A stretch of 64,000 bases of DNA from Candidatus Cloacimonadota bacterium (GCA_023137125.1 JAGLPW010000049.1:204-64203); one strand, 5' to 3'; shown: positions 25,325-56,186, counted from the first letter of the stretch. Translations and numbers: made by a program. The notes: generated by a model not told the origin, from the sequence alone.

Positions 25325-25730
25325 ACCAATAATTTACAGTATATACGAAAGACACTTTTTTAAATTTATGAAATTTCTTTCATCAGGGTTACCATCTTTT
25401 CTGTTAGCTGTCCCTCTAAACATTTTATTAGTAGAAATTGTTAAACTTGATAAAACTTTATCATATTCAATTGTTATATTAATTCAAATAACTATTAATT
25501 TTTTTATTTTAAAGAAATTTGCATTTGATAAAAATAATTCTATCCCAACTTTAAAACAATTCCTATTGTTTCTGGGAGGGATATTTTTTTTCCGAGCTAT
25601 AGATGTTGGAGTCTTTACACTAATGGTAAAATATTTCAACATCTACTACATAATAGCACAGATAATAAATGTTTTATTTTTCTCTATTGTAAAATATTTA
25701 TATAGTAAAAAAATTATTGAAGGAAGTTAG
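25314..25730 (+). CDS. GtrA-family small membrane protein
   Basis: 138 aa with four hydrophobic helices and FKFMKFLSSGLPSFLL...ITINFFILKKFAFD, typical of GtrA. Confidence 0.7.
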   Translation: MNIKPIIYSIYERHFFKFMKFLSSGLPSFLLAVPLNILLVEIVKLDKTLSYSIVILIQITINFFILKKFAFDKNNSIPTLKQFLLFLGGIFFFRAIDVGVFTLMVKYFNIYYIIAQIINVLFFSIVKYLYSKKIIEGS

Positions 25731-25732
25731 TT

Positions 25733-26686: not shown

Positions 26687-26868
26687 AACAAAATCATGAG
26701 GACTATACTAAGCATATTTCAACAACAATGAAAATTTTATGAAAAATAGAAATTTAATAATAATCTACAAAACTTTTGTGAAAGAAGTTAATATAATTCT
26801 ATTGAATAATTATTGGAGTAATTATTAATAAATTAAACTTATCATTTTCTCTTAGTTTAACTTTAATT

Positions 26869-28569: not shown

Positions 28570-28599
28570 GATTTTTTAATAAGGGATAATAAGTAAAAC

Positions 28600-29859: not shown

Positions 29860-30050
29860 AAATAAAGAGTTATTTTATAATATTCTACTAACATTTTTTT
29901 AGTATTATTTATATAATGGTAATTATAATGCATACCTTATGTTTTTATAATAATATTTTTTTAAATAATAATTTAATCTGTAAATATTTATTAAATTTAG
30001 CTTTAATGACTAAGAAATAAAAATACTGATTTGAAAAAGGAGTTAATGAA

Positions 30051-30935: not shown

Positions 30936-31900
30936 TTTCATTTATTGTAATCGGTAGAAATGAAGAAAAACATCTAAATAAATGTTTATGGAGTATTCAT
31001 AATACCATTACCTGTAATAGTATAAAAAAATACGAAATAATATATGTAGATTCAAATTCTTCAGACAACAGCATAAAAATAGCAAATAGAATACCTCAGG
31101 TGAGAATATTTAAAATTACCGGATATTACAATGCTGCAATAGCAAGAAATATCGGAGCAAATGAATCATTGGGCGAGATACTGTATTTTATAGATGGGGA
31201 TATGGAAATTATTCCTGAATTCTTAAGGAATGTATTTGATGAAAAATTGAATTTAAAATATAATTTTGTATCAGGTCAATTAGAAGATCATATTTATGAT
31301 AATAATGATTGTTTAATAGGAAAAAAATTTCATTGTAAAAACGTATTACAAGAGGAACGTTTTTTAGCTGTAACTGGAGGTCTTTTTATAATAAAACGAG
31401 AGATATGGTTTTCAATTAGAGGGATGAATACAAAATTTAGAAGAAGCCAAGATCAAGATTTTGGTTTGCGTTTAGCAAAAAAAGGGATTTTGCTTTTAAG
31501 AAAAAAAGAACTTATGGCAATACATCACACGATAAATTATAATAGTAAATTAATATTGAAAGAAACTTTATTAAAAGGAGATAACTTGTATGGTAGAAGT
31601 GTATTATATCGGGATCACATTTTTAATAAATATATGTATAAAAGAATTCCCAAGAGCGACCCTACCATAATTATTCTATTACTATTAGCTACTTCTGCAA
31701 TTTTATTTCAAAAACCCATTCTTTTATCATTATACTTATTATCAATAATTATTGCACCTATTGTTAAATTTGGAAAAAATATATCATTGATTCTGTATAG
31801 AATACCATATCAAATAATTAGAGATATTAGTGTAATTTTTGCATTCATTTTTTATTATCCTAAATCTATCAAAAAATATCAATATAAGAAAATAAAATGA
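30932..31900 (+). CDS. family-2 glycosyltransferase
   Basis: Motifs ISFIVIGRNEEKHL, YVDSNSSDNS and FIDGDME, plus C-terminal TM helices. Confidence 0.8.
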   Translation: MISFIVIGRNEEKHLNKCLWSIHNTITCNSIKKYEIIYVDSNSSDNSIKIANRIPQVRIFKITGYYNAAIARNIGANESLGEILYFIDGDMEIIPEFLRNVFDEKLNLKYNFVSGQLEDHIYDNNDCLIGKKFHCKNVLQEERFLAVTGGLFIIKREIWFSIRGMNTKFRRSQDQDFGLRLAKKGILLLRKKELMAIHHTINYNSKLILKETLLKGDNLYGRSVLYRDHIFNKYMYKRIPKSDPTIIILLLLATSAILFQKPILLSLYLLSIIIAPIVKFGKNISLILYRIPYQIIRDISVIFAFIFYYPKSIKKYQYKKIK

Positions 31901-31971
31901 AAAAAATAAAATAACATTTTTTACATAAAATGATGTCACCATAATTTTGGGAGCTTACAATTTGACGTATA

Positions 31972-32148
31972 AATTCCTCATCAGTTCATGAAACTTTAAG
32001 GCAGGAAGAAGCAAAGAGTGTTTGGAACAGATTTGAATTTATATTTACTTTTAAATATAGAAGCTGGTCAAATTTTACAGAAACTGGATTAAATATTTTA
32101 CAAAATCAATATTTGAATCGTCGAGTTAGCGATTTTCATGAAGTGTAA
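31972..32148 (+). pseudogene. C-terminal remnant of an IS630/Tc1-mariner-family DDE transposase
   Basis: My translation of 31972-32148 is NSSSVHETLRQEEAKSVWNRFEFIFTFKYRSWSNFTETGLNILQNQYLNRRVSDFHEV*. The pattern F-x-FT-x3-SW-x-N-x2-E-x5-L-x2-Q-x-L-x-RR matches the conserved IS630 tail (..FHFTPTSSSWLNLVERFF..L..RQLRRG..). There is no upstream catalytic region and no start codon. Confidence 0.45.
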
Positions 32149-32331
32149 AATTATATAATGTATTGGTAAAATTACAGGAATTCTAAAAAAAACATAAGTT
32201 AAATGGTAATTTAGAATATTAAGTCTAAGAATTAAATTAAAATACGTTAACTGTTAGTTGAGTAATGTCTTGATACTAGAATTACTATAAGCTTTTATAT
32301 AATTATGAAAAAATAGGGAAAGGAACAATAT

Positions 32332-33387
32332 ATGAAAATATTAATTACGGGCTCTGCTGGTTTTATCGGTTATCATTTAATTAAAAAACTCATCAAAACT
32401 AATAATGTAATTATTGGTTTAGATAATATTAATGATTATTATGATTTAAGAGTTAAGTATGGTAGATTAGATTATTGTGGAATTAGAATACAAAATATTA
32501 AGCATAATGTTTTAATTGAAAGTGACAAACACGAAAATTATCATTTTATTAAATTGGATTTGACGGATCAGAAGAATTTGTATCAATTATTTAAAAAACA
32601 AAAGTTTGATGTGGTAGTAAATCTCGCAGCTCAAGCGGGCGTTCGCTATAGCATTACAAATCCTGATGCTTATTTGCAGAGCAACATAATAGGGTTCTAT
32701 TATATATTAGAAGCTTGTAGACAGAATAAAATTAAACATTTAATTTATGCTAGTAGCTCTAGTGTTTATGGCTGGAATGAGAAGATGCCATTTTCTACTT
32801 CTGATAATGTTGACCATCCCATAAGTTTGTATGCTGCCAGCAAAAAATCAAATGAGCTGTTAGCACATAGTTACAGTGCACTATATAATATCCCCTCTAC
32901 CGGTCTTCGTTTTTTTACTGTTTATGGTCCTTGGGGCAGACCGGATATGGCTCTCTTCTCATTTGTAAAAAACATAATTGAAGGTAAACCTATTGATGTA
33001 TATAATCATGGTAATATGATGCGTGACTTTACTTATATTGATGATATTATAGAAGGGATAAAAAGAGTCATTTCTATTCCACCTAAAGGAAATGAAAAAT
33101 GGTCGGGTGAAAATCCTGATCCTAGCTCTTCCAAAGCACCATATAAATTATATAATATTGGTAATAACTCTCCTGTTCGCTTGTTAGATTTTATTGAGGC
33201 GATTGAGAATAAATTGAATAAAAAAGCAGTTAAAAATATGATGCCTTTACAATCTGGAGATGTACCAGCTTCTCATGCTGATGTTGCTGATTTGATTAAA
33301 GATATTAATTACAAACCCAATACATCGATTAATGAAGGGATAGAAAAATTTATTGATTGGTATTTAAAGTTCTATGAAAAAAAATAG
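32332..33387 (+). CDS. NAD-dependent nucleotide-sugar epimerase (UDP-glucuronate 4-epimerase/CapI-like)
   Basis: Motifs ILITGSAGFIGYHL, NDYYDLRVKYGRL, YAASKKSNEL and RFFTVYGPWGRPDMA. Confidence 0.8.
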   Translation: MKILITGSAGFIGYHLIKKLIKTNNVIIGLDNINDYYDLRVKYGRLDYCGIRIQNIKHNVLIESDKHENYHFIKLDLTDQKNLYQLFKKQKFDVVVNLAAQAGVRYSITNPDAYLQSNIIGFYYILEACRQNKIKHLIYASSSSVYGWNEKMPFSTSDNVDHPISLYAASKKSNELLAHSYSALYNIPSTGLRFFTVYGPWGRPDMALFSFVKNIIEGKPIDVYNHGNMMRDFTYIDDIIEGIKRVISIPPKGNEKWSGENPDPSSSKAPYKLYNIGNNSPVRLLDFIEAIENKLNKKAVKNMMPLQSGDVPASHADVADLIKDINYKPNTSINEGIEKFIDWYLKFYEKK

Positions 33388-34474
33388 AAAGCCTAAAATT
33401 GCAATAATAGGAGTGAAGGGATTACCAGCTTCTGGTGGAGCTGCAAGAGCCTGGGAAAATTTAATTTCTGTATTAAAAGATGATTTTGAATTCACAGTTT
33501 ATGCAATAAGTTCACATACTTCAAATACATACAAAAATGATGGTTTTAATCAAATTGTTTTTAATAGTGTTTCTAATAATGCACTTAATTCATTGCAATA
33601 TTTACTTAAATCTATGTGCCATTGCTTGTTTTTAAGAAATTTCGATTTAGTTGTTACTAATCATGTTTCAAGTTCATTTATTATTCCTTTTTTGAGATTA
33701 AAATATAAGGTTTTAGCTCGTGCTGGAGGTTTATCTCACCTTGATACAAAATGGTCAAAATTTTCAAGACTGATTTTTAAAAACATGATGGGTGTTTTTG
33801 TGAAGTTTTCTTCAGAAGTAGTATGTGTTTCGAAAGAACAAGCAGATTATTTACAAAGAAGTTATTCTAAGAAAATATTTTCTATTCCTAATGGCGTTGT
33901 AATTAATGAAATAATGCTTTCAAAAAAAGATAATAAAAACTATATATTATTTTCAGCTGCAAGAATAGTAGAAATAAAAGGTCTTCATATTCTTTTAAAG
34001 GCAATAAAGAAAATAAAATATTCAGGCAGATTAGTTATAGTGGGTAACTTAGACCATTGTTCAAAATATAAAGAAACAATTAGGAGGTTATCCATAGGTA
34101 TAAATGTTGAATTTACCGGAATTATTAAAGAAAAAAAAAAATTGTATGAAATTATTTCTAATTCCAGTTTATTTATATTTCCTTCTCAAACAGAAGCGAT
34201 GTCAAATATGCTTCTTGAAGTAGCTTCGTTAAAAACTCCAATTATTGCGAGTGATATAAACGATAATAAAACAATCTTTACTGAAAATGAAGTGCTATTT
34301 TTTAGGGTAGATGATGTTAACTCATTGTCTGGGAAAATAGATTATGCATTATCAAATAAAAAAGAAATGCTAGTAAAAGCTGAAAATGCATTTAATAAAA
34401 TTAAAAGCGAATATGACATAAATAGTACTTCGATGATATATAAAAAATTAATTGGCAGTCTATTATCATTTTAA
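33374..34474 (+). CDS. family-4 (GT-B) glycosyltransferase
   Basis: The C-terminal segment FPSQTEAMSNMLLEVASLKTPIIASD resembles the GT4 EX7E region. Contains an A11 tract at 34131-34141. Confidence 0.78.
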   Translation: MKKNRKPKIAIIGVKGLPASGGAARAWENLISVLKDDFEFTVYAISSHTSNTYKNDGFNQIVFNSVSNNALNSLQYLLKSMCHCLFLRNFDLVVTNHVSSSFIIPFLRLKYKVLARAGGLSHLDTKWSKFSRLIFKNMMGVFVKFSSEVVCVSKEQADYLQRSYSKKIFSIPNGVVINEIMLSKKDNKNYILFSAARIVEIKGLHILLKAIKKIKYSGRLVIVGNLDHCSKYKETIRRLSIGINVEFTGIIKEKKKLYEIISNSSLFIFPSQTEAMSNMLLEVASLKTPIIASDINDNKTIFTENEVLFFRVDDVNSLSGKIDYALSNKKEMLVKAENAFNKIKSEYDINSTSMIYKKLIGSLLSF

Positions 34475-44349: not shown

Positions 44350-44427
44350 TGCTCTTTTTTTATATAAATAATTTGACAATCTCATTCCATGCAACAATTT
44401 AGCTCAAAGCATGAAAGGAAAATAATA

Positions 44428-44586
44428 ATGAGAATAACCTTTAAAAACCGTTGTCCGAAGTGTAATGAATTTGACCGTAAGCGACTGCAGAGATCGCCCT
44501 GGATGCGTTTTCTTAAGTACACACGTCTTTATAAATGCATGCAATGTAGAACAGTTTACTTGGTGATCTTTGTTAAAAAATATTGA
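44428..44586 (+). CDS. small zinc-ribbon protein, hypothetical
   Basis: 52 aa with CPKC...CMQC. I prefer the ATG at 44428, which follows a GAAAGGAAA purine tract. Confidence 0.4.
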   Translation: MRITFKNRCPKCNEFDRKRLQRSPWMRFLKYTRLYKCMQCRTVYLVIFVKKY

Positions 44587-44811: not shown

Positions 44812-45186
44812 ATGAGTTTCAGAACACCAAGCATCAATACGGTTTCAATTTCAGGTAATATCGTTCGTGACGCAGAAGTTAACCATGTAGGTGAGGCTAA
44901 GACACCAGTTTGTACAATAACTATTGCTCATAATCAGCGCTATAAAGCAAAAACCGGAAAATGGCAGGAGACAGTTTCGTTCATCGATGTTGAGGTCTGG
45001 GGCGCTTTGGCCGAAAGAGGAGATTATTACAAAAAAGGTGTTCCTGTGATCGTTGAAGGAGTCCTTAAAGGTAATCAATGGAAAGACAAAGAAGGAAAGG
45101 GTCATTCTAAAGTCGTTGTAAGAGCTGCTAAAATACATGTTCTGGTTTACCCTGAGAAAGAAGGGAAAGAAAAGGTAGAAGAATAG
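44812..45186 (+). CDS. ssb: single-stranded DNA-binding protein (short, without canonical acidic D-D-D-I/L-P-F tip)
   Basis: OB-fold pattern NTVSISGNIVRDAEV...FIDVEVWGALAE...KGVPVIVEGVL. AGGAGG RBS. The protein ends in KEGKEKVEE. Confidence 0.8.
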   Translation: MSFRTPSINTVSISGNIVRDAEVNHVGEAKTPVCTITIAHNQRYKAKTGKWQETVSFIDVEVWGALAERGDYYKKGVPVIVEGVLKGNQWKDKEGKGHSKVVVRAAKIHVLVYPEKEGKEKVEE

Positions 45187-45370: not shown

Positions 45371-45877
45371 CTATTTTCTTTCTTTCTCATATAGTTCAAT
45401 TAATTTGTCCTTGAGTTCATCTATTGTCACTTTTTGATCTTCAATTTTGCTACTTAGTTGTTGATTCTTCTTTTCTAAGAAGGCTAGCTTATTAAGAATT
45501 TCTGAATCATTAGTTTTCGTGTAAGTTTCCAAATCCTTTCCCGTATCTCTTCCTCGTTTTGCAATTTCTTTTATAATTCGTGGTGCCCTCAAACTGCCTG
45601 TTATATTTGTTCTTTTTACGATTGAAGGAGTTTTTAATGTTTCCAGAACAGATTTATCTATCTTAGTTATTCTATCTTTATCATCACCGAAGATCAACCA
45701 AAAAGTATCAACACCTAATGTTGTTGCAATAGTTGCCAGCACATGTTGCGAAGGAAAAGTGAAATTATTTTCATACCTTGCCACAGTAGTTTGTCTGACA
45801 CCGATTTTAGACGCTAAGTCTTTCTGTGTTAAACCTTTAAAAATTCTTATTCTCTTTACTCTATCACCAAAATTCAT
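45371..45877 (-). CDS. XRE/cI-like HTH repressor with C-terminal coiled coil (no S24 peptidase domain)
   Basis: HTH segment LTQKDLASKIGVRQTTVARYENN. I set the start at the ATG preceded by GGAGGG. It is transcribed divergently from the 46002 operon. Confidence 0.8.
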   Translation of the reverse strand: MNFGDRVKRIRIFKGLTQKDLASKIGVRQTTVARYENNFTFPSQHVLATIATTLGVDTFWLIFGDDKDRITKIDKSVLETLKTPSIVKRTNITGSLRAPRIIKEIAKRGRDTGKDLETYTKTNDSEILNKLAFLEKKNQQLSSKIEDQKVTIDELKDKLIELYEKERK

Positions 45878-45918
45878 ATCATAACCCTCCACTATTTGCC
45901 AATATGCATAATAAATGC

Positions 45919-45946
45919 TTGACATATGTAGCTACATGCATATATT
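45919..45946 (+). promoter_or_regulatory. sigma70-like promoter with embedded perfect palindromic operator
   Basis: TTGACA (45919-45924), a 16-nt spacer, then TATATT (45941-45946). The spacer contains the perfect 12-bp palindrome ATGTAGCTACAT (45926-45937). Confidence 0.55.
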
Positions 45947-46001
45947 ACCAATATATATTCATATTGATATTCGTCAAATGAAAAATTAATAAGGAATGAA
46001 T

Positions 46002-46448
46002 ATGAGAGAAAAATTATTTATTAAAGGCAGTGAGTTCATTCGCCAAGGTTCAACCTGGCATCACAATTTAGTTAATGAGCTGGTTGAGTTAAAAATAATA
46101 TTAGGAGCTGAGGGGACCAAAAAAAAATTAGTTGAAGAGTTGGCAAAATATTACACAGGTTCGCTACCAAAAGGATCATATTTGTTGCGATTGGTCAGTG
46201 TAGTGGAAAAATTGCAGAAGAAAGATGTTCCAAAAGAGCTTTATGAAAAAATACCCCTTTCTTACTGGATAAAACTAATTAAATACGTAACACGTGACAA
46301 TGCTCAGGAGATCATAGATTGCTTAAACAATGAAGTGCAACTTAAAATATTAATAGAAAAATTAAAACAGGGCTTTGAGCTAAGATATAACCTTTTCTCA
46401 GGCGAACATGAATTTTATCGAGAGAAAAAGAAAGATGAGAATCCTTAA
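46002..46448 (+). CDS. hypothetical protein
   Basis: First gene of the rightward operon. The AAGGA RBS fits ATG 46002 better than the track start at 45996. Confidence 0.5.
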   Translation: MREKLFIKGSEFIRQGSTWHHNLVNELVELKIILGAEGTKKKLVEELAKYYTGSLPKGSYLLRLVSVVEKLQKKDVPKELYEKIPLSYWIKLIKYVTRDNAQEIIDCLNNEVQLKILIEKLKQGFELRYNLFSGEHEFYREKKKDENP

Positions 46449-47256
46449 AAGAACTATTATCAGAATATCCAAGAACAGCAAGACGTTATTCCAATTCAGG
46501 GATCAGCAATTAGGATGTTACCATTTTGCAAACTCAGCTTTTCCTGATCCGGATCCAGATAAGATCGTCAACAAACAAGCACTGATCCTGGAACTTGGGG
46601 GGAAATATTATCTTCTTGGGCATGATGAAATACTTAAAGAAAAATATATCGAATACCATGCGGGAGATCAACTCACATTGAGACTTTACCCAAATGGGAA
46701 TGCAGCAATGTTCTTTCTCAAATCGGGTTCTTCTGGCGTTTCGGTGTTAAATTATGATGTGAAAACTAAGAAGCTCATCTTTGATGCTTCAATTCTTAAC
46801 GTACCCTATCAATCTCTACATCCAAGTTATATTGTCTGTGAGGAAGGCAGATACACTAGCATCCAGGTACTCCTCCCAACTACTGTCTTTGCTGCTCTCT
46901 CCAGTATTTCAAAAGAGACCCTCCGTCGTTGGAAAGTTGAGGGCAAGCTGATTCCTGTAATAATCACATCTACTGGTCGTTCTTATTACTCACCAGTTCA
47001 GTGTTCTCTGGCCAAAAAGTTACATGATAAACGCTGTAATTCGGCTGAAATTTACTTAATTATCATAAATGAGCTGAAAGAGCTCAACCCAGGTGAAGTT
47101 GTATACATTTCCTGGTTCAAAAATCTGGTCCGGAAGTATTCCAATTCCAACTATTGTTATAGTACATTAAGAGATCTGCTCCGGGAATTAATATCGCAAA
47201 ATAGAATAGAACGTGTTAAACAAGGCTACTATTGTAGCTTTACAAATCAAGTTTAA
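46408..47256 (+). CDS. hypothetical protein with MerR/excisionase-like HTH and C-terminal winged-helix-like tail
   Basis: ISKETLRRWKVEGKLIPVIITSTGRSYY resembles a MerR-type HTH. The tail LRELISQNRIERVKQGYY resembles a winged helix. An alternative start is at 46435. Confidence 0.5.
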   Translation: MNFIERKRKMRILKRTIIRISKNSKTLFQFRDQQLGCYHFANSAFPDPDPDKIVNKQALILELGGKYYLLGHDEILKEKYIEYHAGDQLTLRLYPNGNAAMFFLKSGSSGVSVLNYDVKTKKLIFDASILNVPYQSLHPSYIVCEEGRYTSIQVLLPTTVFAALSSISKETLRRWKVEGKLIPVIITSTGRSYYSPVQCSLAKKLHDKRCNSAEIYLIIINELKELNPGEVVYISWFKNLVRKYSNSNYCYSTLRDLLRELISQNRIERVKQGYYCSFTNQV

Positions 47257-47267
47257 GGGAGAGAAAA

Positions 47268-48215
47268 ATGAAAAAACCATTAAATTACGTGATGGAATTA
47301 CCGAATGTTAAAATTGTATTAATATTCATCTTTTGTGGTCTGCCATGGGATTTATATTCTGCCTGGTGTCTTTATTGGCATATAGGGTATTGTAATTTTG
47401 TAGACTATGATGCTATTGTTGAAGATGAAATGAAAGATAAGTCGATCGCCAAGATGATCGAACTTAACCGGCAACGCTTAGCTAGCAAGAACAAACTTGT
47501 TATCATCAAAAAGGTCCGATTGAATTTTGATTTTCCGGAGATCGCGGATCAGATCGTTGAAGCTCTATCACAAACTGCAGCAAATGAAGATCCGGGAAAA
47601 TTGAAAATGCCGTCTGCCTTTGTTTACTTCTTAAGGAACCATCGGATGAGAAAGTTCATAGAAACTGCATTGCTTGTTAGATTAGTATTCCATGAGATCA
47701 ATAGATTGTGGCTACAATTTAATCCTGTGGGGATCCGTCGTGACTACTTTGAGATATTCGAATATTTTCTGTGGAATGTCCGCAGTATGACAAATTCTGA
47801 ATTGCGCGAGTTTTTCAAGTGGAATGGAGATAATGCATACTATAGATATCATCATAAGGTTTTAGGAGGAGATGTGAATCAGTTCTTGGGTTGCTGGGGG
47901 CTTGAGGATCGTGAAGTGCAAAATAGGAGTATCTACAAAATGACATCTAAGATCTCCAACAATATTTCTAATGCTTCAGAAGGCGCATCCAAAGAACTTT
48001 TTTCACTGCAAAACTCCTGCACGAGCCAAATAGTAAAAAATGAGAAGATGCAATTTCCAAATCAACCCATTCCGAGTGAATTTTTAGGAAATCCTACTTG
48101 GCCTATTAAACCTGATATGAGTGAAGCTGCTTTTCAGGTGCGAAATATTAACCGAGAATATCGATTTCAGCAGTTGTTTGATATTATAAAGAAAAGAGGA
48201 GAAGATAATGATTAG
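47268..48215 (+). CDS. hypothetical protein (N-terminal hydrophobic segment; shares an aromatic motif with the next ORF)
   Basis: GGGAGAG RBS. 315 aa. No known motif. Confidence 0.5.
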   Translation: MKKPLNYVMELPNVKIVLIFIFCGLPWDLYSAWCLYWHIGYCNFVDYDAIVEDEMKDKSIAKMIELNRQRLASKNKLVIIKKVRLNFDFPEIADQIVEALSQTAANEDPGKLKMPSAFVYFLRNHRMRKFIETALLVRLVFHEINRLWLQFNPVGIRRDYFEIFEYFLWNVRSMTNSELREFFKWNGDNAYYRYHHKVLGGDVNQFLGCWGLEDREVQNRSIYKMTSKISNNISNASEGASKELFSLQNSCTSQIVKNEKMQFPNQPIPSEFLGNPTWPIKPDMSEAAFQVRNINREYRFQQLFDIIKKRGEDND

Positions 48216-49983
48216 AAAAGAGATAGTCCCCTTTACCAGATTCCTGGAGGTCAGTATTCTTGCAGGATGGGACGATGAAAGTATTATACAGCAAATGACT
48301 CGGTACCAGCTATTTGTTGGCGGAGAGGAGATCGAGGATATTAGGCATGAGCTTAATGAAAAAACAGTATGCAAGGCTATGATAACAGAGAACCAAATAC
48401 GTCTTGAGAATGAAGAAGAACCGCTGATAGATAAAGATGTAAAGGCAATGTACAAGTATCAGGAAGACTTTAAGGCTCTTATTAATAATTTATCCTGTGC
48501 TACCAGAATTATCAAGAGAGGAAAGCTGCAAAATGTAGAGTGTGCTGATATTTTGCTGGAAGATGTTCACAGGTATCTGGCAGAAAATTTTGCAATGACC
48601 TTCATGGAGTTTGAAGTTCTGGCACAAGAAGCTAAAAATTCGGAGATAGAGATTTTTACAGAGGATGCTTATAGGAGGCATCTGTACTGGTTTTGGAATA
48701 TTGAAGATAGTGATCAGGAAAGAGTTGCACGATATGTATATCATCATAAGGAAAGAGGCCTATATCATCAATATATAAATCCAACGCTGGAGGGGATCCA
48801 GGATATTTTTAGTCCCTTTAATGAACCGGATAAAAATGAAATCATCCGCAAGATTAAAATTAATAATTTTAAATACAGAGATAAGATCTCACGCGATCTT
48901 GATCATGGGCGGACGCCCGATAAGTCAGATATTTCTCGTTTTAGATCAACTGCTGTTAATATCAACAGGCTAGGACACCATGAGGCTCTTGTGAAAACAG
49001 CAAATTATCTGGAACGCAAGTTTGGTGGATATATGCGTAATGAGCAAACTACATACATAGATCCTGATGACATTTTAGTGGTTCCTCACAAAAATTTTAT
49101 CAGGCTTCTAATTTACATTGGCTATAAACTTGATGAAGTAGAAGGAATTTTAAGGAGGTATTGTTTTAATCATATCCCAAAATGTTTTTTAGAGGATATT
49201 TACAGCGGCTGTATATCTTTTGCCGAAGGAAAAGAGATGGTTGCAGAAAATCAGAAGAGAATGGCCTTAAAAGAGCCATTATTTGACTCTTCTGAGGTGA
49301 GAAAAACGTTCCATTATAAGACTATATATGATGCCGCAATACAATGGCCAAGAGCTATAACTAGACGCGGAGTATTTACTATTAACGTAATATTGAAGAG
49401 TGAATATAAGAGGCGAGTTTTCGATCTAGCACATATCGTTGGCATGCGCTACAGGCAATTGTTTGATCTATGGCAGAGGCATTTTAAAGTGGAATTAACC
49501 AGGAATGACTATAAGTTATATAAATATTACTGTTGGACGTTACCGAAATTTCCATTTAGTAAGCGGGGATTATATCAGTATTTGCAGCAGGATCCTACAA
49601 ATGCTCTTTATCGAAGCTATAAATCATTCTTTGATCTAGAGCCACTTGATCTTATTATGAAACTGGGAAAATTCACAGATAAAGAAAGGGATATGAGTAA
49701 TCGCGAGATGTTGGGGAAACTATTTGTTTATCGCTCTATTGCCCTTCAGGATGGAACTCCTTTTCCGAATTGGATGAATAAGTTATTGATAAAATTAGAA
49801 GAAAAATATGATGAACTAGATGAAGAAGAAAATAAAGAGTATTATCGAAAGCAGTTACAGCGAATCTTCGACCGGATTACCGGTAAAGTGAGATATACTA
49901 TGACGAGAGATCAAATAAAAAATATACGAAGACCTAAAAAAATTGAAACTCTGATCGTGCAGGATGAGCCTAAGCCCGAATAA
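48208..49983 (+). CDS. hypothetical protein, 591 aa
   Basis: Overlaps the upstream stop by 8 nt. I saw no Walker or nuclease/primase motif. Confidence 0.55.
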   Translation: MIRKEIVPFTRFLEVSILAGWDDESIIQQMTRYQLFVGGEEIEDIRHELNEKTVCKAMITENQIRLENEEEPLIDKDVKAMYKYQEDFKALINNLSCATRIIKRGKLQNVECADILLEDVHRYLAENFAMTFMEFEVLAQEAKNSEIEIFTEDAYRRHLYWFWNIEDSDQERVARYVYHHKERGLYHQYINPTLEGIQDIFSPFNEPDKNEIIRKIKINNFKYRDKISRDLDHGRTPDKSDISRFRSTAVNINRLGHHEALVKTANYLERKFGGYMRNEQTTYIDPDDILVVPHKNFIRLLIYIGYKLDEVEGILRRYCFNHIPKCFLEDIYSGCISFAEGKEMVAENQKRMALKEPLFDSSEVRKTFHYKTIYDAAIQWPRAITRRGVFTINVILKSEYKRRVFDLAHIVGMRYRQLFDLWQRHFKVELTRNDYKLYKYYCWTLPKFPFSKRGLYQYLQQDPTNALYRSYKSFFDLEPLDLIMKLGKFTDKERDMSNREMLGKLFVYRSIALQDGTPFPNWMNKLLIKLEEKYDELDEEENKEYYRKQLQRIFDRITGKVRYTMTRDQIKNIRRPKKIETLIVQDEPKPE

Positions 49984-50189
49984 TTAAAAGACTCTAGTTT
50001 AATTTATAATTATTAATATAAGAAGTGCAATTAATTTAAAATAAGCAGATATTATGATCTGAAATTGGAAATTATGAGTGAATTTCACTGTAGATATTTG
50101 GAATTTAATTGGATTATTATAGAGACATGTAACTCTATACAGGGTAGCATATTAGCCTTTAATCGGTCATATATATAGAGTATAAAGGG

Positions 50190-50229
50190 AAAAACTCCTG
50201 CAGGCTAATCCCCTGAAGGAGTTTTTTTT
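50190..50229. terminator. strong bidirectional rho-independent terminator
   Basis: AAAAACTCCTGCAGG-ctaatc-CCTGAAGGAGTTTTTTTT: 14 of 15 bp pair in the stem, with an A-run before and a T8 run after. Confidence 0.75.
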
Positions 50230-50252
50230 ATCTCAGGGCATTGCCCTGAGAT
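50230..50252. promoter_or_regulatory. 23-bp perfect palindrome ATCTCAGGGCA-T-TGCCCTGAGAT
   Basis: 11-bp arms around a single central base, directly after the terminator and 36 nt before the Sak4-like start codon. Confidence 0.5.
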
Positions 50253-50287
50253 CTGTATAAAAATTCACAAAAAAAAAGGAGGGAAAT

Positions 50288-51316
50288 ATGCAAGACCAAG
50301 ACTTATCGTTTGAAAAAGCAGTAAAGTCAAAGTTGAAACTGCGCCTGGCAATTATCGGTCCCAGCGGCAGCGGGAAAACCTACACCTCTCTTCTGCTAGC
50401 TTCGGGACTGTCTAAGAAAATTGCCCTGTTAGACACCGAGAGAGGATCGGCAAAAAAGTATGCCGATCTTTTTAAATTCAGCGTACTGGAACTGGAAAAT
50501 TTCCATCCGGATAACTTTATCGAAGCTATCAAAAGTGCAGAAGCACAAAAATTCGATCTGCTCATCATTGATTCACTCTCCCATGCCTGGAACGGGCATA
50601 ATGGAGCTCTGGAACTGGTCGACAAAGCTGCGGCAAGATTGAAGAGCACCAGCAGTTTCGCTGCCTGGAGGGAGGTGACACCTCTGCACAATAAGATGAT
50701 CGATGCAATTCTGAGGGCAGATCTGCATATTATCGTAACTATGCGCGCTAAGACAGAATACTCCCTGGAGAAAGAAAATGAAAAAAGCGTGGTCAGGAAG
50801 GTCGGCATGCAGCCGATACAGCGTGAAGGACTTGAGTATGAATTTGATATTGTGGGTGATATGGATCTGACCAGCACCATGGTTATCAGCAAGACACGTT
50901 GTCCTATTCTGCAGCAGTCGGTGATCCAAAAACCTGGCAAGGAGCTGGCTAAAACTATTCTGAAATGGCTGAACAGCGGAGAGCCTGTAAAGAAGAAGGT
51001 AGTATCTGCAGGAGATAAACGAGAGAGGGACAGATTGATCAAGAATATCAAAACCAAAATGGAGGAGTTGAATGAGAAGAATTTCATCACAGTCAAAAAA
51101 CTGAGCGAGTTCGGAGATAAGATCAAAGATCCCAAAGCAACTGTCGGGATGCTTAAGTTCCTGGAAAAACAACTGCTGCTGATCGACCGACTCGATCAGA
51201 TAAAGGCCACAATTTCCCAGCAGCAGCGGAAAAGTTTCTATCGGAAAATACTGGCAACGAACACCCAGGACGTAAAAGCCTTAGAGAAGGAATTGAAAAT
51301 AATGGAGGCAGCATGA
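50288..51316 (+). CDS. Sak4-like RecA-fold ATPase (AAA_24-type phage recombination protein) with coiled-coil C-terminal extension
   Basis: Walker A GPSGSGKT and Walker B LLIIDSLSHAW. Domain of about 230 aa followed by a tail of about 110 aa. Confidence 0.72.
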   Translation: MQDQDLSFEKAVKSKLKLRLAIIGPSGSGKTYTSLLLASGLSKKIALLDTERGSAKKYADLFKFSVLELENFHPDNFIEAIKSAEAQKFDLLIIDSLSHAWNGHNGALELVDKAAARLKSTSSFAAWREVTPLHNKMIDAILRADLHIIVTMRAKTEYSLEKENEKSVVRKVGMQPIQREGLEYEFDIVGDMDLTSTMVISKTRCPILQQSVIQKPGKELAKTILKWLNSGEPVKKKVVSAGDKRERDRLIKNIKTKMEELNEKNFITVKKLSEFGDKIKDPKATVGMLKFLEKQLLLIDRLDQIKATISQQQRKSFYRKILATNTQDVKALEKELKIMEAA

Positions 51317-52194
51317 AGATCACCAATAACAACGGCATTCCTGAGCCGATCGTCCGGGCGATCAAAAAAGGGTGGTACAGCGGGGCTGGTGCAAAACATT
51401 ATTGCAGTGTAACCGAGCTACTTAAACCTGAGAAAATGTTTGTTCTGGAACAAAGATACAGGGATACGATCAACCAGGAAGCTTCGGATCTTATTTGGAG
51501 TCTTATGGGGAGTGCGATGCATAGGGTGCTTGAAGCATCGGAGACAAAAAACACATTGAATGAGGAGAGATTATTTGCTACTGTGAACGGTAAGATCATC
51601 TCCGGTGGTATTGATCTATATGAGAACGGGATCATCTCAGATTTCAAATTCACCAGCGTCTGGCAATATCTTTATAAAAGTGGAATTACTCTATGGGAAC
51701 AACAATTAAATCTCTATTCATATCTCTATCAGTCAGCAGGATTCGAGGTCGATAAGTTGCAGATAATAATGATCTTTAAAGATTTTTCAGCAGCTAAGTG
51801 TAAATATGAAAAGAACTATCCTCAGCAAGTGGAGGTCATCCCGATCGAAAAATGGGATCTATCATGGTGCCGGCACTTTATTGCGCAAAAATTGGATAAA
51901 TTGGAACGCGCACTCTCCCTTTCTGATGATGATATCCCCGCATGCTCACCACAGGAGCGCTGGCAGGATCCGCAAAAATATGCTGTGATGAAAAAGGGCA
52001 ATAAAAGAGCGCTGAAACTCTTCGATTCAAAAGAATCCGCCACCAGATTCATCTCTTCACATAAGGATAAGAAAAGGCTTTTTATAGATATCCGCGAGTC
52101 GATCCCCAGAAGGTGTAATTACTGTGTTGTAAATAGATTCTGTAATTTTTATCAGACCTACAAAAATATGAAAGATAATTTAAAAACGGCTTAA
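51313..52194 (+). CDS. Cas4-like PD-(D/E)XK exonuclease with Fe-S cysteine pattern
   Basis: Motifs GGIDLYE, ISDFK and QLNLYSYL (RecB-family QxxxY). Cys31 plus C-terminal CNYCVVNRFC gives the Cas4-type C...CxxCx5C arrangement. Confidence 0.68.
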   Translation: MKITNNNGIPEPIVRAIKKGWYSGAGAKHYCSVTELLKPEKMFVLEQRYRDTINQEASDLIWSLMGSAMHRVLEASETKNTLNEERLFATVNGKIISGGIDLYENGIISDFKFTSVWQYLYKSGITLWEQQLNLYSYLYQSAGFEVDKLQIIMIFKDFSAAKCKYEKNYPQQVEVIPIEKWDLSWCRHFIAQKLDKLERALSLSDDDIPACSPQERWQDPQKYAVMKKGNKRALKLFDSKESATRFISSHKDKKRLFIDIRESIPRRCNYCVVNRFCNFYQTYKNMKDNLKTA

Positions 52195-52207: not shown

Positions 52208-52333
52208 ATGGCCAAAGTTAGAAGTATCATCGTTGAGATCATCAGAGAGCTCAGCTTCCTGATCTGGACAATACTGCAGGAGAGAAGAGAAAATCGGAAA
52301 AGAGATCCTGCGAAAAAGAGGAGAATGAGATGA
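52208..52333 (+). CDS. possible 41-aa basic peptide
   Basis: AAGGAGGA RBS 6 nt upstream. Sequence MAKVRSIIVEIIRELSFLIWTILQERRENRKRDPAKKRRMR. Its stop overlaps the next start codon (ATGA). Confidence 0.3.
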   Translation: MAKVRSIIVEIIRELSFLIWTILQERRENRKRDPAKKRRMR

Positions 52334-53079
52334 AGGAGAAAGAAGACATGCCAATGTTGAGCGATGTACTTAGAATGGTTGACAGAAACAAAGTTATAGG
52401 TGATCTAAGAAATAAACACTATCATCAGGTAGCTTACAATAATTCAAGGACAATCATCAAATATGTGGAAAATGATGTTGTATTAACAGCTTTCGCTTAT
52501 AATCCGGGTAATGCTGTTGTAATCTTTCCCAAGGCTAATAAACAGCTAATTGCATATAGTTCATATTTTGACGGCTTTCCTAGTGGACAATGCTATTCCT
52601 GTTTTCATTGGAGCAAGATGGATATGAAAATGGCAATTACTCTGATCAAACAAGATATCTGGGAAAGATCGGATCATTGTGAAGATGTAATATACGAAGA
52701 TACATCATATGCTTCACAGTGGGAGGAACTGGCAACAGGGAATATCGAATATACATCATCATATAGTAACTCAACATTAACCATCAGAAATTTCAAGAAA
52801 ACTTACAATAATTACATCTACAATCGTAACTATACGATCTATAGACTCACTTCTGGAAAACTGAGAGTTGAGGTGGATGGAAAATACTATTCCTATGAAG
52901 AGTTCATTAATATCATCATGTTCTTCCGCAATCACAAAATTGATGAGTCTGTTATCATCGTAGAAGTACCTAAATTAAATACCTGGCAGAAGGTGTTATC
53001 AATAGATGACTTGAACAATGACATATTAGATCAACTCAAAGTGCAGGCAATTTCCAAAAAGATGAAAGAAGCCGCTTAG
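52330..53079 (+). CDS. hypothetical protein
   Basis: 249-aa ORF, Tyr/Asn-rich, with no recognised motif. Confidence 0.5.
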   Translation: MKEKEDMPMLSDVLRMVDRNKVIGDLRNKHYHQVAYNNSRTIIKYVENDVVLTAFAYNPGNAVVIFPKANKQLIAYSSYFDGFPSGQCYSCFHWSKMDMKMAITLIKQDIWERSDHCEDVIYEDTSYASQWEELATGNIEYTSSYSNSTLTIRNFKKTYNNYIYNRNYTIYRLTSGKLRVEVDGKYYSYEEFINIIMFFRNHKIDESVIIVEVPKLNTWQKVLSIDDLNNDILDQLKVQAISKKMKEAA

Positions 53080-53128
53080 GAGTAGATATATAGGCTAAAA
53101 GCTAATAAGCAAAAGCTAAAAGAGTAAT

Positions 53129-53152
53129 ACCGGAGTTATCCGGTTTTTTTTT
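53129..53152 (+). terminator. rho-independent terminator
   Basis: ACCGGA-gtta-TCCGGT followed by T9. Confidence 0.7.
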
Positions 53153-53186
53153 ATGTCAAAAAACAAATAAAAAAGGAGAAAAAAAT

Positions 53187-54194
53187 ATGAGAGCAAAACA
53201 ATTACGTGAAACGTTGGAGTTTTCAATAAAAAATAGATTTCCCGTATTAATTAAGGGATCGCCTGGTATTGGGAAAACGGACATTGTCACTCAGTCCAGT
53301 GCTGCAATGGGGGCTGATTTAATAGTAAGTCACCCGGTAGTATCTGATCCTACAGATTTCAAAGGACTGCCATTCCCCAATAAAGATGGGTCAGCGGCAA
53401 AATTCTTACCATTTGGAGATCTGCTAAGGCTAATTGAGGCAGATAAACCGACAGTGTTCTTTCTAGACGATCTGGGACAAGCATCAGCCAGCGTGCAGGC
53501 GGCAGCCATGCAGCTGCTTTTAGCACGCCGGATCAATGGACATGCAGTTTCTGATCATGTGGTATTCCTGGCAGCAACAAACAGGAGACAAGATAGGGCA
53601 GCGGTCCAAGGCATCCTAGAGCCGGTGAAGAGTCGATTTGCAGCGATTTTGGAATTAGAGGTAAACACAGATGATTGGGTGGAATGGGCAATTGAGAATG
53701 ATATGCCAACAGAGCTTATTGCCTTTATCAGATTCCGACCGAATTTACTTCACGATTTCAAACCCACAGCAGATATCATAAATACACCCAACCCAAGAAC
53801 TGTTGCCAATGTTGGGAAAATGATGAATGCTGGTCTACCTAAAGATACAGAATACGAAATGATCTCTGGAGCTGCAGGAGAAGCATTTGCTACTGAGTTT
53901 TTGGGATTTTTAAAAGTCTATCGGGATCTTCCTGATATAGATAAACTGATCGCTGATCCTGAGAATACAGATGTGCCTAATGAACCCAGTACACTTTTCG
54001 CAGTGTGTGGAGCATTATCGGCATCTGCAGCTGCCAATAAGAAGAACTTTGGCAATATAATCAAATACACCGATCGATTACCAGGTGAGTTCCAGGTATT
54101 ACTAATTAAAGATGCCATAAAACGTAATAATTTGCTGGCAAATACCAAGGAATTTTCCCAGTGGGCCATTAAGCATTCTGACGTAATTTTGTAA
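53187..54194 (+). CDS. MoxR/CobS-type AAA+ ATPase (AAA_5-like)
   Basis: Walker A GSPGIGKT and Walker B VFFLDDLGQA. Single AAA+ module of about 335 aa. Confidence 0.8.
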   Translation: MRAKQLRETLEFSIKNRFPVLIKGSPGIGKTDIVTQSSAAMGADLIVSHPVVSDPTDFKGLPFPNKDGSAAKFLPFGDLLRLIEADKPTVFFLDDLGQASASVQAAAMQLLLARRINGHAVSDHVVFLAATNRRQDRAAVQGILEPVKSRFAAILELEVNTDDWVEWAIENDMPTELIAFIRFRPNLLHDFKPTADIINTPNPRTVANVGKMMNAGLPKDTEYEMISGAAGEAFATEFLGFLKVYRDLPDIDKLIADPENTDVPNEPSTLFAVCGALSASAAANKKNFGNIIKYTDRLPGEFQVLLIKDAIKRNNLLANTKEFSQWAIKHSDVIL

Positions 54195-54211
54195 AAAAAA
54201 TAGGAGGAAAT

Positions 54212-55063
54212 ATGTTAAATGATAAAGCTATGATCGTATATCTTAATATCAGTTTCTGGACTGCCCGTAAATATGATAAGAGGGTGTCGCAGGAGATCGA
54301 GAGACAATATAATGCCGATGAAGCCGGCAGATACAATAAGGTTCTTATCGCCAAGGAGCATCTGTCCAATATCAGAAAAATTATCTCATCTGCCAGAACT
54401 TTTCATTATGAGAATACAGTGCCCTGGGATGATCATGGAGGTAGATTATTACCCACTTCAAACTACTTTGATTATCTAAACGGTTTACGCACTTACCAGG
54501 ATGAGTTTGAGAGAGAGACTGCAAACTTTTTATTAGTCTATCCCAGTCTCAAATATGAGGCCAGTCTAAGGCTGAATGCCCTGTACGAAGAGGAAGATTA
54601 TCCCGATGTTGAAACTCTAAAAACTAAATATGCATTTACTAACCAGATTACACCCGTACCGGATGCTGATGACTTCAGAGTGAACCTAAGTAGTGATGAA
54701 GTTGATTCTATCAGAGACTCTATTGAACAACAGGTAAAGGATTCAACTGAAGCTGGCATGCATGATCTTTGGAAGAGATTATTCAAAGTAGTAGAGAACA
54801 TGGTGGAGAGGTTGAAAGATCCGGACCATAAATTCAAGAACAGTCTGGTTGAGAACATAGAAAATCTATGTGAGTTGTTACCTAAGCTCAACATCACCAA
54901 TGATCCTGATCTGGATACAGCAGTGGATGAAATTCAATCCAAGCTGACAATGAACAATCCGCAGACACTCCGAGAAAACAGCATGGTTCGCAATAGAACA
55001 GCTCAAGCTGCTCAGGAAATACTTAATAAAATGCGGCATTATCAGATACAGACAGCAGCTTAA
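54212..55063 (+). CDS. hypothetical protein sandwiched between AAA+ and VWA genes
   Basis: 283 aa with a GGAGGA RBS. It may belong to an uncharacterised family that accompanies CobS/CobT-like pairs; I cannot verify this. Confidence 0.5.
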   Translation: MLNDKAMIVYLNISFWTARKYDKRVSQEIERQYNADEAGRYNKVLIAKEHLSNIRKIISSARTFHYENTVPWDDHGGRLLPTSNYFDYLNGLRTYQDEFERETANFLLVYPSLKYEASLRLNALYEEEDYPDVETLKTKYAFTNQITPVPDADDFRVNLSSDEVDSIRDSIEQQVKDSTEAGMHDLWKRLFKVVENMVERLKDPDHKFKNSLVENIENLCELLPKLNITNDPDLDTAVDEIQSKLTMNNPQTLRENSMVRNRTAQAAQEILNKMRHYQIQTAA

Positions 55064-55073
55064 GGATTTGTGT

Positions 55074-56186
55074 ATGGAAACTTCTAAAAGAAAATTGACC
55101 AAAGCGAGAGCGGGGCTGGTATTATCCAGCCCTTTCTTTGCTTCCCTTGCTCTACAGCTTAAATTGATAGAGGATCAGGAATGTGCAACAGCCTATACCG
55201 ACTCTGTTGTTCTGGGCTATAATCCGGAATTTATTGCTAAGCTCTCCAATGCTGAATTAAAGGGAGTGATCTGTCACGAGGTTCTGCATATCGCTATGCT
55301 TCATCCATTCCGTAGAGCTGGGCGTGACCAGATGATTTGGAATATTGCCTGCGATTATGCTATCAATCCTATTGTTAAAGAAGCAGGATTTTCTCTGCCG
55401 GCAGGAGCGCTGCTCGATGATAGATACAAAGGTAGAGAAGCAGAAGTGATCTACAATATGCTTCCCAAACAATTACCGGAAGACTTAAATTTAATTGGAG
55501 AGGTGAGAGATTACAAACAGGATAAGAGTGATATGAAATCAAATACTGTAAAGCATCAGGAGAAGAACTGGAAAATAACTTTATCAGGAGCTGCAGGAAT
55601 AGCTAAAGCTCAAGGTAAATTACCGGCAAGGTTGGATAGGATGATAAAGGAGATGTTGCAACCGAAGCTGCCTTGGGGAGAAATATTATCCAGGTTCATA
55701 ACAGAAAATGCTAAGAATGATTTCACCTGGACACAACCGAATAAGCGGTATTTGTACTCTGGATTATACTTACCAGGACTTAATGTTCCTACTCTTGGGA
55801 CTATTGCTGTTATTGTAGATACTAGTGGTTCGATATCGCAGAAAGAGCTTGATACATTTTCCTCTGAACTGCAATCGATCCTTCATATCTATCCGGGAAC
55901 TGAGATAAAAGTGATCTATGTCGACACTAAAGTAGCTCACACACAGACTATAGATATCTATGACTTCAAGCTAAACGCCAAGGGTGGAGGGGGAACAGAC
56001 TTTAAGCCTGGCTTTGAGTACATAGAGAAAGAAGCTGTTATGCCTTCTTGTGTTATCTATTTCACCGATGGTTGGTGCGACTCATTTCCCCAAGCACCGG
56101 ATTATCCAACGCTCTGGGTGTCAACTGACAGAATAAATTTCAAACCACCATTTGGTGAAGTGATCTATATAGAACAGCGGGAGTAA
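55074..56186 (+). CDS. putative metallopeptidase (HExxH, DUF2201_N-like) fused to VWA domain
   Basis: ICHEVLHIAMLH and WNIACDYAIN at the N-terminus, with the MIDAS motif IVDTSGSIS in the C-terminal half. I set the start at ATG 55074, which has an AAGGA RBS. Confidence 0.8.
   Translation: METSKRKLTKARAGLVLSSPFFASLALQLKLIEDQECATAYTDSVVLGYNPEFIAKLSNAELKGVICHEVLHIAMLHPFRRAGRDQMIWNIACDYAINPIVKEAGFSLPAGALLDDRYKGREAEVIYNMLPKQLPEDLNLIGEVRDYKQDKSDMKSNTVKHQEKNWKITLSGAAGIAKAQGKLPARLDRMIKEMLQPKLPWGEILSRFITENAKNDFTWTQPNKRYLYSGLYLPGLNVPTLGTIAVIVDTSGSISQKELDTFSSELQSILHIYPGTEIKVIYVDTKVAHTQTIDIYDFKLNAKGGGGTDFKPGFEYIEKEAVMPSCVIYFTDGWCDSFPQAPDYPTLWVSTDRINFKPPFGEVIYIEQRE

Follow-up and report, generated by a model that had tools for sequence, protein, structure and literature searches.

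What does a repressor-controlled operon of four proteins, most of them without a recognisable relative in the databases, do in the chromosome of an uncultured bacterium? The question is raised by a stretch of 64,000 nucleotides (nt) from Candidatus Cloacimonadota bacterium (GCA_023137125.1, JAGLPW010000049.1:204-64203), which we call the window and from whose first letter positions are counted. A first-pass annotation, made from the sequence of the window, had pointed to four tightly packed or overlapping open reading frames (ORF1 to ORF4) behind the divergent promoter of an XRE-type repressor. In these it had seen nothing familiar except a MerR/excisionase-like helix-turn-helix (HTH) and a winged-helix-like tail in the second protein, and it had proposed, in the setting of a temperate phage, either a novel replication initiator set or a repressor-controlled accessory (defence or anti-defence) cassette. 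We report here that ORF3 and ORF4 consist of three copies of one module, and that stand-alone relatives of this module in uncultured phages are encoded directly beside the phage large terminase.

The four genes lie on the plus strand, namely ORF1 at 45996..46448 (MCK5050770.1, a hypothetical protein of 150 amino acids (aa) as read here and 148 aa per NCBI), ORF2 at 46435..47256 (MCK5050771.1), ORF3 at 47268..48215 (315 aa), and ORF4 at 48208..49983 (591 aa). The start of ORF2 is corrected here to 46435, which is used by NCBI and in the orthologues and gives a protein of 273 aa; from 46408, the protein would have 282 aa. With this start, ORF1 runs 14 nt into ORF2, a gap of 11 nt lies between ORF2 and ORF3, and ORF4 begins 8 nt before the end of ORF3. 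The tight packing noticed at first thus holds, and the orthologues of all four genes are found in the identical order in other metagenome-assembled genomes (MAGs) of Cloacimonadota. Likewise, the lack of recognisable motifs was borne out for ORF1, ORF3, and ORF4, which had no significant match in Pfam, PHROGs, NCBIfam, or PADLOC; among the defence models of PADLOC-DB v2, the best E values were 0.019-0.023 for ORF1 and ORF2, and nothing was returned for ORF3 and ORF4. Sensitive searches, furthermore, assigned none of the proteins to the families of replication initiators, helicase loaders, or primases. Beyond the HTH of ORF2, the proteins of the cassette are hence without a described family, as had been supposed.

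ORF3 and ORF4 are built from one module

Profile-profile comparison showed that one module of ~300 aa is present three times, once as ORF3 and once in each half of ORF4. The first copy is ORF3 itself (47268..48215, plus strand), which has a C-terminal motif of its own, NREYRF, and matched the family of stand-alone proteins described below with an hhalign probability of 99.7% (E 4.4e-26). The N-terminal half of ORF4 (ORF4-N; aa 1-283, 48208..49056, plus strand) is the second copy and matched the same family at 99.5% (E 1.8e-22), and the C-terminal half (ORF4-C; aa 284-591, 49057..49983, plus strand) is the third, being closest to the stand-alone proteins of phages in the profile search and examined also with AlphaFold2. 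ORF4-N and ORF4-C matched each other at 96.6%, and ORF3 matched the halves of ORF4 at 92-97%. Because hhalign links ORF3, ORF4-N, and ORF4-C to one family, they are three paralogous copies and not independent unknowns, as the four proteins had first been taken to be. ORF1 and ORF2 were also considered as degenerate copies of the module, and this was rejected with hhalign probabilities below 1%.

The module is rare. A profile of ORF4 orthologues gave 39 matches among 1.84 billion representative proteins; few of these are full-length proteins with both domains, and most are proteins of 305-355 aa that align only to ORF4 residues ~290-590. A word-indexed search with the family alignment gave 4 matches, and scans of genomes and metagenomes returned only the loci already known. 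By tblastn, no homologue of ORF4 or of P0015 (the nearest phage protein) was found in GenBank phages and none of ORF4 in PLSDB plasmids, and scans of IMG/VR with ORF4, ORF2, P0042, P0022, and the AAA_24 ATPase of the locus gave no relatives. AlphaFold2, supplied with an alignment of 32 sequences, predicted an all-alpha structure for ORF4-C (pLDDT 86.4, pTM 0.75) with a multi-helix N-terminal domain, a helix of 44 residues, and a short C-terminal tail. Judged from this model together with the searches, the module is a new, previously undescribed family, the predicted fold of which has no recognisable relative.

In block-wise comparisons of identity, the C-terminal tail of ORF4, KEYYRKQLQRIFDRITGKVRYTMTRDQIKNIRR (49834..49932, plus strand), stands out as a conserved and basic element. 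Within the block of aa 551-580, 19/30 residues are identical to P0015 and 23/30 to an island paralogue that we call X (P0016), as compared with mostly 6-9/30 residues identical to P0015 in the other blocks of ORF4. The tail is lacking in ORF3 and ORF4-N. In the characterised small terminases of lambda, P22, T4, and SPP1, it is the C-terminal region that contacts the large subunit. Since the tail of ORF4 is conserved in the phage protein P0015, it is, by analogy with those small terminases, a candidate segment for binding the large terminase.

Stand-alone relatives lie beside the large terminase gene of phages

Genomic context was read for 6 of about 25 cluster representatives of the stand-alone proteins, namely P0015, P0020, P0047, P0025, P0031, and P0056, which represent six lineages with mutual identities of 19-41%. 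The stand-alone gene lies directly upstream of a gene for a large terminase (TerL) of the GpA_ATPase type in all six lineages; the start of the TerL gene is overlapped by 17-32 nt in five of them, and in the sixth, the stand-alone gene ends 2 nt before it. The downstream gene encodes a genuine TerL, as it matches phrog_675 (E 1.5e-43) and its product aligned in tblastn with annotated terminases at 23% identity. No other candidate for a small terminase (TerS) is present between the two genes in the lineages read. In lambda, Nu1 is placed in this way with respect to gpA, and the most fitting interpretation of the stand-alone proteins is therefore that they serve a group of uncultured phages as small terminase; the profile comparisons make it very probable that the module of the cassette is homologous to these proteins at the TerS position. 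With its relatives at the position of small terminase, therefore, the module would be indicative of packaging and not of replication.

The phage contigs also carry a conserved gene for a protein of 655-702 aa, which in all six lineages (L010, L011, L014, L018, L021, and the contig of P0031) is located ahead of the gene at the TerS position. It is directly upstream in five of them, and a gene for 283 aa intervenes in L021; no significant match was found in Pfam (with L010, L011, and L018) or in PHROGs (with L011 and L021). The contig of P0031, 72 kb in length, also encodes ribonucleotide reductase. Since most of the neighbouring genes on these contigs lack a match in PHROGs, the phage group is poorly charted. 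On L010, which is the contig of P0015, small proteins with a common N-terminal motif, M(K/Q/R)CPMIIKEA, are encoded at 150-680, 5587-6015, and 6055-6291, and the motif occurs twice within a single L010 protein of 176 aa; to judge from their sequences, these proteins look like a paralogous family flanking the terminase genes.

The cassette has been retained in a chromosomal island

The operon is a variable, repressor-gated cassette of a phage-derived island that has a fixed chromosomal site in a clade of Cloacimonadota. Orthologous cassettes were found in at least 8 lineages, and every member with a named source comes from Cloacimonadota MAGs; judged from consecutive locus tags, the genes of these cassettes follow one another in an unchanged order, and at least 5 sequenced loci have intact copies of all four. 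In a neighbour-joining tree (without support values), ORF3, ORF4-N, ORF4-C, and the fourth paralogue X each form one clade with parallel internal branching, and the phage or stand-alone proteins group apart from these, closest to ORF4-C and X. Because the module clades branch in parallel, capture and duplication of the module would have preceded the split of the at least 8 lineages, with retention since then. The number of modules varies from 3 to 4, as L007 and the HOG24 and PF570 MAGs carry X, which the window lacks.

Two side observations concern the copy number. In Candidatus Tenebribacter davisii (L001), an ORF of 75 aa at 9816-10043, located in a 1-kb gap after ORF4, is a remnant of X in which only the conserved tail is left (...GLERIFSRITGKMRANILNEKWKNKRR...), and which may represent either a pseudogene or a tail peptide that stands on its own. 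Also, the HOD64 MAG encodes two different ORF4-like proteins at unrelated tags (HOD64_12105 and HOD64_00455), which means either two cassettes in one genome or a strain-mixed bin.

When the window is compared with L002, the ratio of nonsynonymous to synonymous substitution rates (dN/dS) is 0.15-0.28 across the four ORFs. That of ORF2 to ORF4, 0.22-0.28, is 2-4 times higher than that of the host flanks, 0.06-0.12, and synonymous divergence is the same in both, with differences at 4-fold degenerate sites of 0.23-0.30 in ORF2 to ORF4 and 0.21-0.33 in the host flanks. The cassette is under purifying selection with accelerated protein change. Indeed, the XRE repressor and ORF1 to ORF4 are 38-54% identical to their counterparts in L001, as against 67-92% for the neighbouring genes, and ORF2 to ORF4 are 32-41% identical to those in L007, as against 88% for the adjacent AAA_24 ATPase and exonuclease. 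Across the island, 4-fold differences from L002 fall into two ranges: 0.43-0.79 in the genes for the single-stranded DNA-binding protein (SSB), XRE, ORF1, a protein of 249 aa without a name (unk249), MoxR, DUF3150, and DUF2201, and 0.21-0.33 in the host flanks and from ORF2 through the exonuclease gene. As the segments thus differ in the depth of synonymous divergence, the island appears to be a recombinational mosaic, i.e., a product of allelic replacement between lineages.

The setting is not that of a temperate phage, as had first been assumed. Among the ORFs of the window and in scans with family libraries, no integrase, structural, lysis, or large terminase gene was found in the island; there is no integrase-like ORF in or beside 44.3-56.5 kb, and no TerL, integrase, or structural gene anywhere in the window. 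Neither flanking direct repeats nor attachment (att) sites of the island were found. A mobile prophage or an att-flanked satellite was considered and rejected, given that there are no flanking repeats and that the window has no tRNA.

A possible action on phage packaging and its alternatives

Of the two functions that the first-pass annotation had offered, the repressor-controlled accessory cassette stands, and it probably narrows to a cassette acting on phage terminase. A terminase-directed function, in which the products act on the packaging of phage DNA, is quite possible from the analogies above, and we favour it tentatively. The module would then descend from a TerS-position protein of uncultured phages with a large terminase of the lambda gpA type. 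The operon would be silenced by the XRE repressor, and upon de-repression, triggered for example by phage infection, the TerS-like paralogues would be produced and might assemble as a mixed oligomer. Through its basic tail, ORF4 would engage the large terminase of the infecting gpA-type phage, so that packaging of the phage DNA would be either blocked (a packaging-interference defence) or diverted to the island or chromosomal DNA (a satellite-like hijack). ORF2 may contribute a DNA-binding protein with an HTH of the MerR/Xis type, and ORF1 may be a small accessory protein. In this scheme, we infer that the phage homologues are functional TerS and that the tail binds TerL, and the same applies to the trigger and to the outcome for the phage.

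A more specific form of the scheme, which we consider rather unlikely, is that the island represents an integrase-free element of a new type, where the large terminase of a gpA-type phage, upon infection, is captured by an array of proteins that mimic the small terminase. Packaging of the phage could be aborted by this capture, or packaging in situ could carry the island together with adjacent chromosomal DNA to new cells; in recipient cells, the SSB, annealing protein, and exonuclease of the island would recombine the delivered DNA into the homologous locus. Such a route of packaging and recombination would explain why the island has no integrase or att, why its site is fixed, and why its segments form a mosaic of synonymous divergence.

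There are several points that weigh against a function directed at the terminase. The assignment of the stand-alone proteins as TerS is positional only. When compared with characterised TerS families and structures, neither ORF3 nor ORF4 had a match at E<=1 in Pfam or PHROGs, none of 26 members of the module family matched PHROGs, the module profile gave no meaningful match to PDB sequences, and Foldseek found no match to the ORF4-C model (best E 0.9 in PDB and 0.55 in BFVD, with TM <=0.22). In the window, the genes of the module adjoin ORF2 and a Sak4-like ATPase and not TerL, and the cassette is an early-type operon directly behind a repressor switch, which is an unusual place for packaging genes. 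Repeat scans gave no convincing pac- or cos-like repeat. The ORF4 tail may be conserved for the sake of oligomerisation, or simply through common descent, and not for binding to TerL, and the elevated dN/dS, still well below 1, may only be relaxed constraint. The hosts and phages are, furthermore, uncultured, and the mechanism is drawn from gene position and homology alone.

The location of the operon brings up another explanation, in which exaptation has turned the TerS-like modules into DNA-binding proteins with sequence specificity that serve, independently of any terminase, as early transcription regulators or origin-binding replication initiators. A place directly behind the repressor/operator switch and upstream of recombination genes is indeed the early or replication position in temperate phages, ORF2 is an HTH protein, and the fold would be reusable, small terminases being DNA-binding oligomers in general. 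This explanation appears improbable to us, because no primase, helicase, loader, polymerase, or Rep was matched among the island proteins in scans of Pfam, PHROGs, NCBIfam, and PADLOC, and repeat scans in and near the cassette genes were negative for iterons, for tandem repeats, and for an AT-rich structure resembling an origin. Nor is there any similarity of the modules to replication initiator families in Pfam, PHROGs, NCBIfam, PDB, or Foldseek, and with no integrase or att, the island gives no sign of excision or autonomous replication; the retained phage-like C-terminal tail of ORF4 would also be left unexplained. Together with the position of the module relatives beside TerL, the lack of iterons and replication enzymes leaves the novel replication initiator set of the first-pass annotation unsupported.

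Alternatively, the stand-alone family might be not TerS but a late-operon regulator or packaging accessory, in which case the island copies would have an unrelated activity, possibly as a defence or anti-defence effector. A length of 305-355 aa seems large for TerS, the TerS families of Pfam and PHROGs and the known folds gave no match, and the conserved gene for 655-702 aa is also upstream in the phage contigs. The stand-alone gene, nonetheless, overlaps or abuts the start of TerL in all six lineages in the classical Nu1-A arrangement with no other TerS candidate in between, the predicted helical N-terminal domain, long helix, and conserved tail fit a generic plan of TerS, and PADLOC gave no match, which together make this alternative doubtful. 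It is far less probable that the cassette no longer has a function and is what is left of a decaying prophage. The integrase, structural, and lysis genes are certainly missing from the island, and one paralogue has decayed to the fragment of 75 aa in L001; the four genes are, however, intact in at least 5 loci under purifying selection, the paralogues co-diverge across at least 8 lineages, and the promoter, the overlaps for translational coupling, and the terminator, the last with compensatory changes, have been maintained.

ORF1, ORF2, and regulatory signals

Orthologues of ORF1 are 48-54% identical. ORF2 is composed of a beta-rich N-terminal part (~115 aa), a central HTH of the MerR/excisionase type (aa 161-200 in the numbering of the 282-aa protein starting at 46408), and a C-terminal winged-helix-like tail. 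The HTH and the tail that had been noticed at first were both recovered in Pfam, with MerR_1 at 23.6 bits (cut-off 21.6; E 5.6e-5), Exc at E 0.003, and a weak match of the tail to AbiEi_4 at E 0.0016; a weak match to the N-terminal HTH of IS607 was also obtained. NCBI names ORF2 a MerR family regulator. The HTH is central and not N-terminal, and no dimerisation/effector domain of the MerR type was detected C-terminally in ORF2. A profile search gave no meaningful relative of ORF2 in the PDB by sequence, and tblastn found no homologue in GenBank phages, with only matches at E>=0.04 to the HTH. The AlphaFold2 model of ORF2, based on an alignment of 5 sequences, was poor (pLDDT 44.7), and its Foldseek matches to VgrG and OB-fold-like structures (TM 0.18, rmsd 25 Å) were dismissed as not interpretable.

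The divergent repressor promoter could be substantiated. The repressor is a protein of the XRE/Cro-CI type on the minus strand (45371..45925, with the likely start at M17, position 45877) and consists of an HTH (HTH_19 and HTH_3, E ~1e-12; repressor families phrog_8, phrog_4, and phrog_3) and a C-terminal coiled-coil; no S24 peptidase (autocleavage) domain was found in it. It is the most diverged gene of the island, with 38-47% identity to its orthologues. A consensus scan located the divergent promoter region at 45919..45977, the sequence of which diverges between genomes. On the plus strand, a promoter-like site at 45919-45946 (TTGACA, 16 nt, TATATT) has 11/12 consensus matches, and on the minus strand, a site at 45977-45950 with 10/12 matches faces the XRE gene. 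The spacer of the plus-strand promoter contains a perfect 12-bp palindrome, ATGTAGCTACAT (45926-45937), which is a candidate operator.

The operon, with its end given as 49983, had also been described as closed by a strong terminator. The terminator is real, and it lies farther downstream, at 50190..50234 on the plus strand (inverted repeat I12), 206 nt past the stop of ORF4. Its hairpin (50190-50226) has arms of 15 nt with 93% complementarity and is followed by T8. The terminator is retained, with compensatory changes in the stem, in three further genomes; another hairpin, which is perfect, comes next at 50231-50253. The ORF4 stop is separated from the terminator by an AT-rich untranslated stretch of 206 nt (49984..50189, plus strand), which is partly conserved in alignments with L002, L007, and L003. 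No match to non-coding RNA was found for it in Rfam; it may act as an element of the 3' untranslated region, give rise to a small RNA, or serve as a pac-like site to which a protein binds.

The island and neighbouring genes

The window is chromosomal and not phage DNA, its genes including those for PriA, acyl-CoA dehydrogenase, a response-regulator/PglZ protein, and a polysaccharide cluster; several of its proteins have C-terminal sorting domains of the type IX secretion system (T9SS), and proteins of the window are on record, as exact copies, from a 'Candidatus Cloacimonetes bacterium' MAG. The cassette is located within a 12-kb block of phage-type genes at about 44.4-56.2 kb, in the order of SSB, XRE, ORF1 to ORF4, Sak4-like ATPase, Cas4-like exonuclease, unk249, MoxR, DUF3150, and DUF2201/VWA. 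In several genomes, the island is flanked by host polysaccharide genes on one side and genes for T9SS cargo on the other. In two other MAGs, one of which is T. davisii (L001), the block is bordered by the same host genes as in the window, with UDP-glucose dehydrogenase and epimerase on the left; three genomes thus have identical surroundings of the insertion, and different genera-level lineages share the chromosomal site.

The left-most gene of the island encodes a phage-type SSB of 124 aa (44812..45186, plus strand; Pfam SSB E 1.1e-21, phrog_44 E 1.4e-25), which is 89-92% identical in L001 and L002 and far more diverged at synonymous sites than the host flanks. Behind the terminator, also on the plus strand, follow an AAA_24 ATPase, probably a Sak4-like single-stranded DNA-annealing protein (50288..51316; AAA_24 E 7e-26, phrog_1366 E 4e-85, Sak4-like phrog_124 E 1e-11), and a Cas4-like exonuclease of the PD-(D/E)XK type (51313..52194; exonuclease phrog_2139 E 1.3e-56, phrog_1706 E 1e-6). 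The right-hand part of the island (52330..56186, plus strand; phrog_1297 E 1e-76, DUF3150 E 8e-5, DUF2201_N E 5e-51, phrog_1314 E 3e-105) begins with unk249 and continues with a MoxR-like AAA ATPase (53187-54194; phrog_1297), a DUF3150 protein (54212-55063), and a DUF2201 metallopeptidase/VWA protein (55068-56186; phrog_1314), all on the plus strand. A pair of MoxR and VWA genes is also located beside replication genes in Vibrio virus SBP1, the sole record of N4-like Schitoviridae inspected, and no useful literature was found on DUF3150.

The annealing gene has been swapped between genomes, being the Sak4-like AAA_24 gene in the window, L002, L003, and L007 and a gene for a Rad52_Rad22 protein in T. 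davisii (L001, 10758-11606). Both annealing proteins, namely AAA_24 of the window and the Rad52-type protein of L001, keep a homologous C-terminal region of ~90 aa (27% identity) that ends in ...LEAA or ...MEAA, and the C-terminus of unk249 is likewise ...KEAA; given the resemblance of these sequences, the shared ends may constitute a docking domain for a partner such as exonuclease or SSB. Between the epimerase gene and SSB, an ORF of 65 aa (44389-44586) with two CxxC pairs is zinc-ribbon-like and 65-79% conserved in L001 and L002. Farther upstream in the window, positions 16000-34000 have a GC content of 23-29%, as compared with 33-43% elsewhere, and lie within a run of genes all on the plus strand, upstream of the UDP-glucose dehydrogenase genes, as is typical for clusters of O-antigen or exopolysaccharide genes that are exchanged horizontally.

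Comparison with known systems

The module family numbers about 40 cluster representatives among 1.84 billion proteins, has a confidently predicted fold with no known relative, and probably provides a group of uncultured phages with their small terminase. It has been captured, triplicated or quadruplicated, and long kept in a bacterial chromosome with no terminase of its own. The cassette offers a handle for linking this phage group to its host. If our favoured reading of a terminase-directed function is true, interference with or piracy of terminase reaches beyond phage-inducible chromosomal islands (PICIs) in Firmicutes and Proteobacteria and beyond a Listeria prophage to Cloacimonadota, a phylum of the Fibrobacteres-Chlorobi-Bacteroidetes (FCB) group, where it would reside in an integrase-free element.

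With respect to phage packaging itself, the stand-alone relatives resemble the Nu1/gpA pair of lambda in that they hold the position of Nu1, upstream of and overlapping a TerL of the GpA_ATPase type, and the helical N-terminal domain, long helix, and conserved C-terminal tail predicted for the module are in line with the general plan of TerS. In contrast to Nu1 and other TerS, the module is ~320 aa in length and all-alpha, with no detectable similarity in sequence or structure, and unlike TerS in phages, the module in the window is triplicated with two of the copies fused and has no TerL. Because neither adjacency to TerL nor similarity to characterised TerS is found in the window, the cassette is not classifiable as TerS. 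As regards ORF2 only, the central HTH resembles proteins of the MerR/Xis type, with a score above the Pfam cut-off for MerR_1; ORF2 differs from MerR regulators in having the HTH placed centrally, behind the beta-rich domain of ~115 aa, and in that no dimerisation/effector domain of MerR is detected.

Piracy of packaging by the Staphylococcus aureus pathogenicity islands (SaPIs) uses the TerS of the SaPI and Ppi. In a PICI of E. coli, Rpp forms a heterocomplex with phage TerS, by which packaging of the phage is blocked and redirected to the island (PMC6739421). The locus described here is similar to PICIs and SaPIs in being a repressor-controlled chromosomal island that encodes proteins putatively directed at terminase and has no large terminase of its own, and its repressor is similar to SaPI Stl in lacking an autocleavage domain and in being the most diverged gene. 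It is different in that the island has no integrase with att repeats, no replication module (primase or replicase) of its own, as would be expected of a phage satellite, and no capsid-remodelling genes, in that it occupies one chromosomal site across genera-level lineages, and in that it has an array of 3-4 paralogues instead of a single gene. The proteins of the cassette are also unrelated in sequence to Rpp, Ppi, and SaPI TerS, with no match in Pfam or PHROGs. Another system, TerI (TERi), is a packaging-inhibition defence of a Listeria prophage that targets the terminase complex, and is a small protein of a complete prophage accompanied by two self-immunity proteins (bioRxiv 10.1101/2025.02.27.640495). 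Set beside TerI by its description, the cassette, if read as a defence, would be a functional analogue; it differs in having TerS-like modules in an island with no packaging machinery to protect. While belonging to neither of these systems, therefore, the cassette is most like the packaging piracy of PICIs and SaPIs or the interference of the TerI type.

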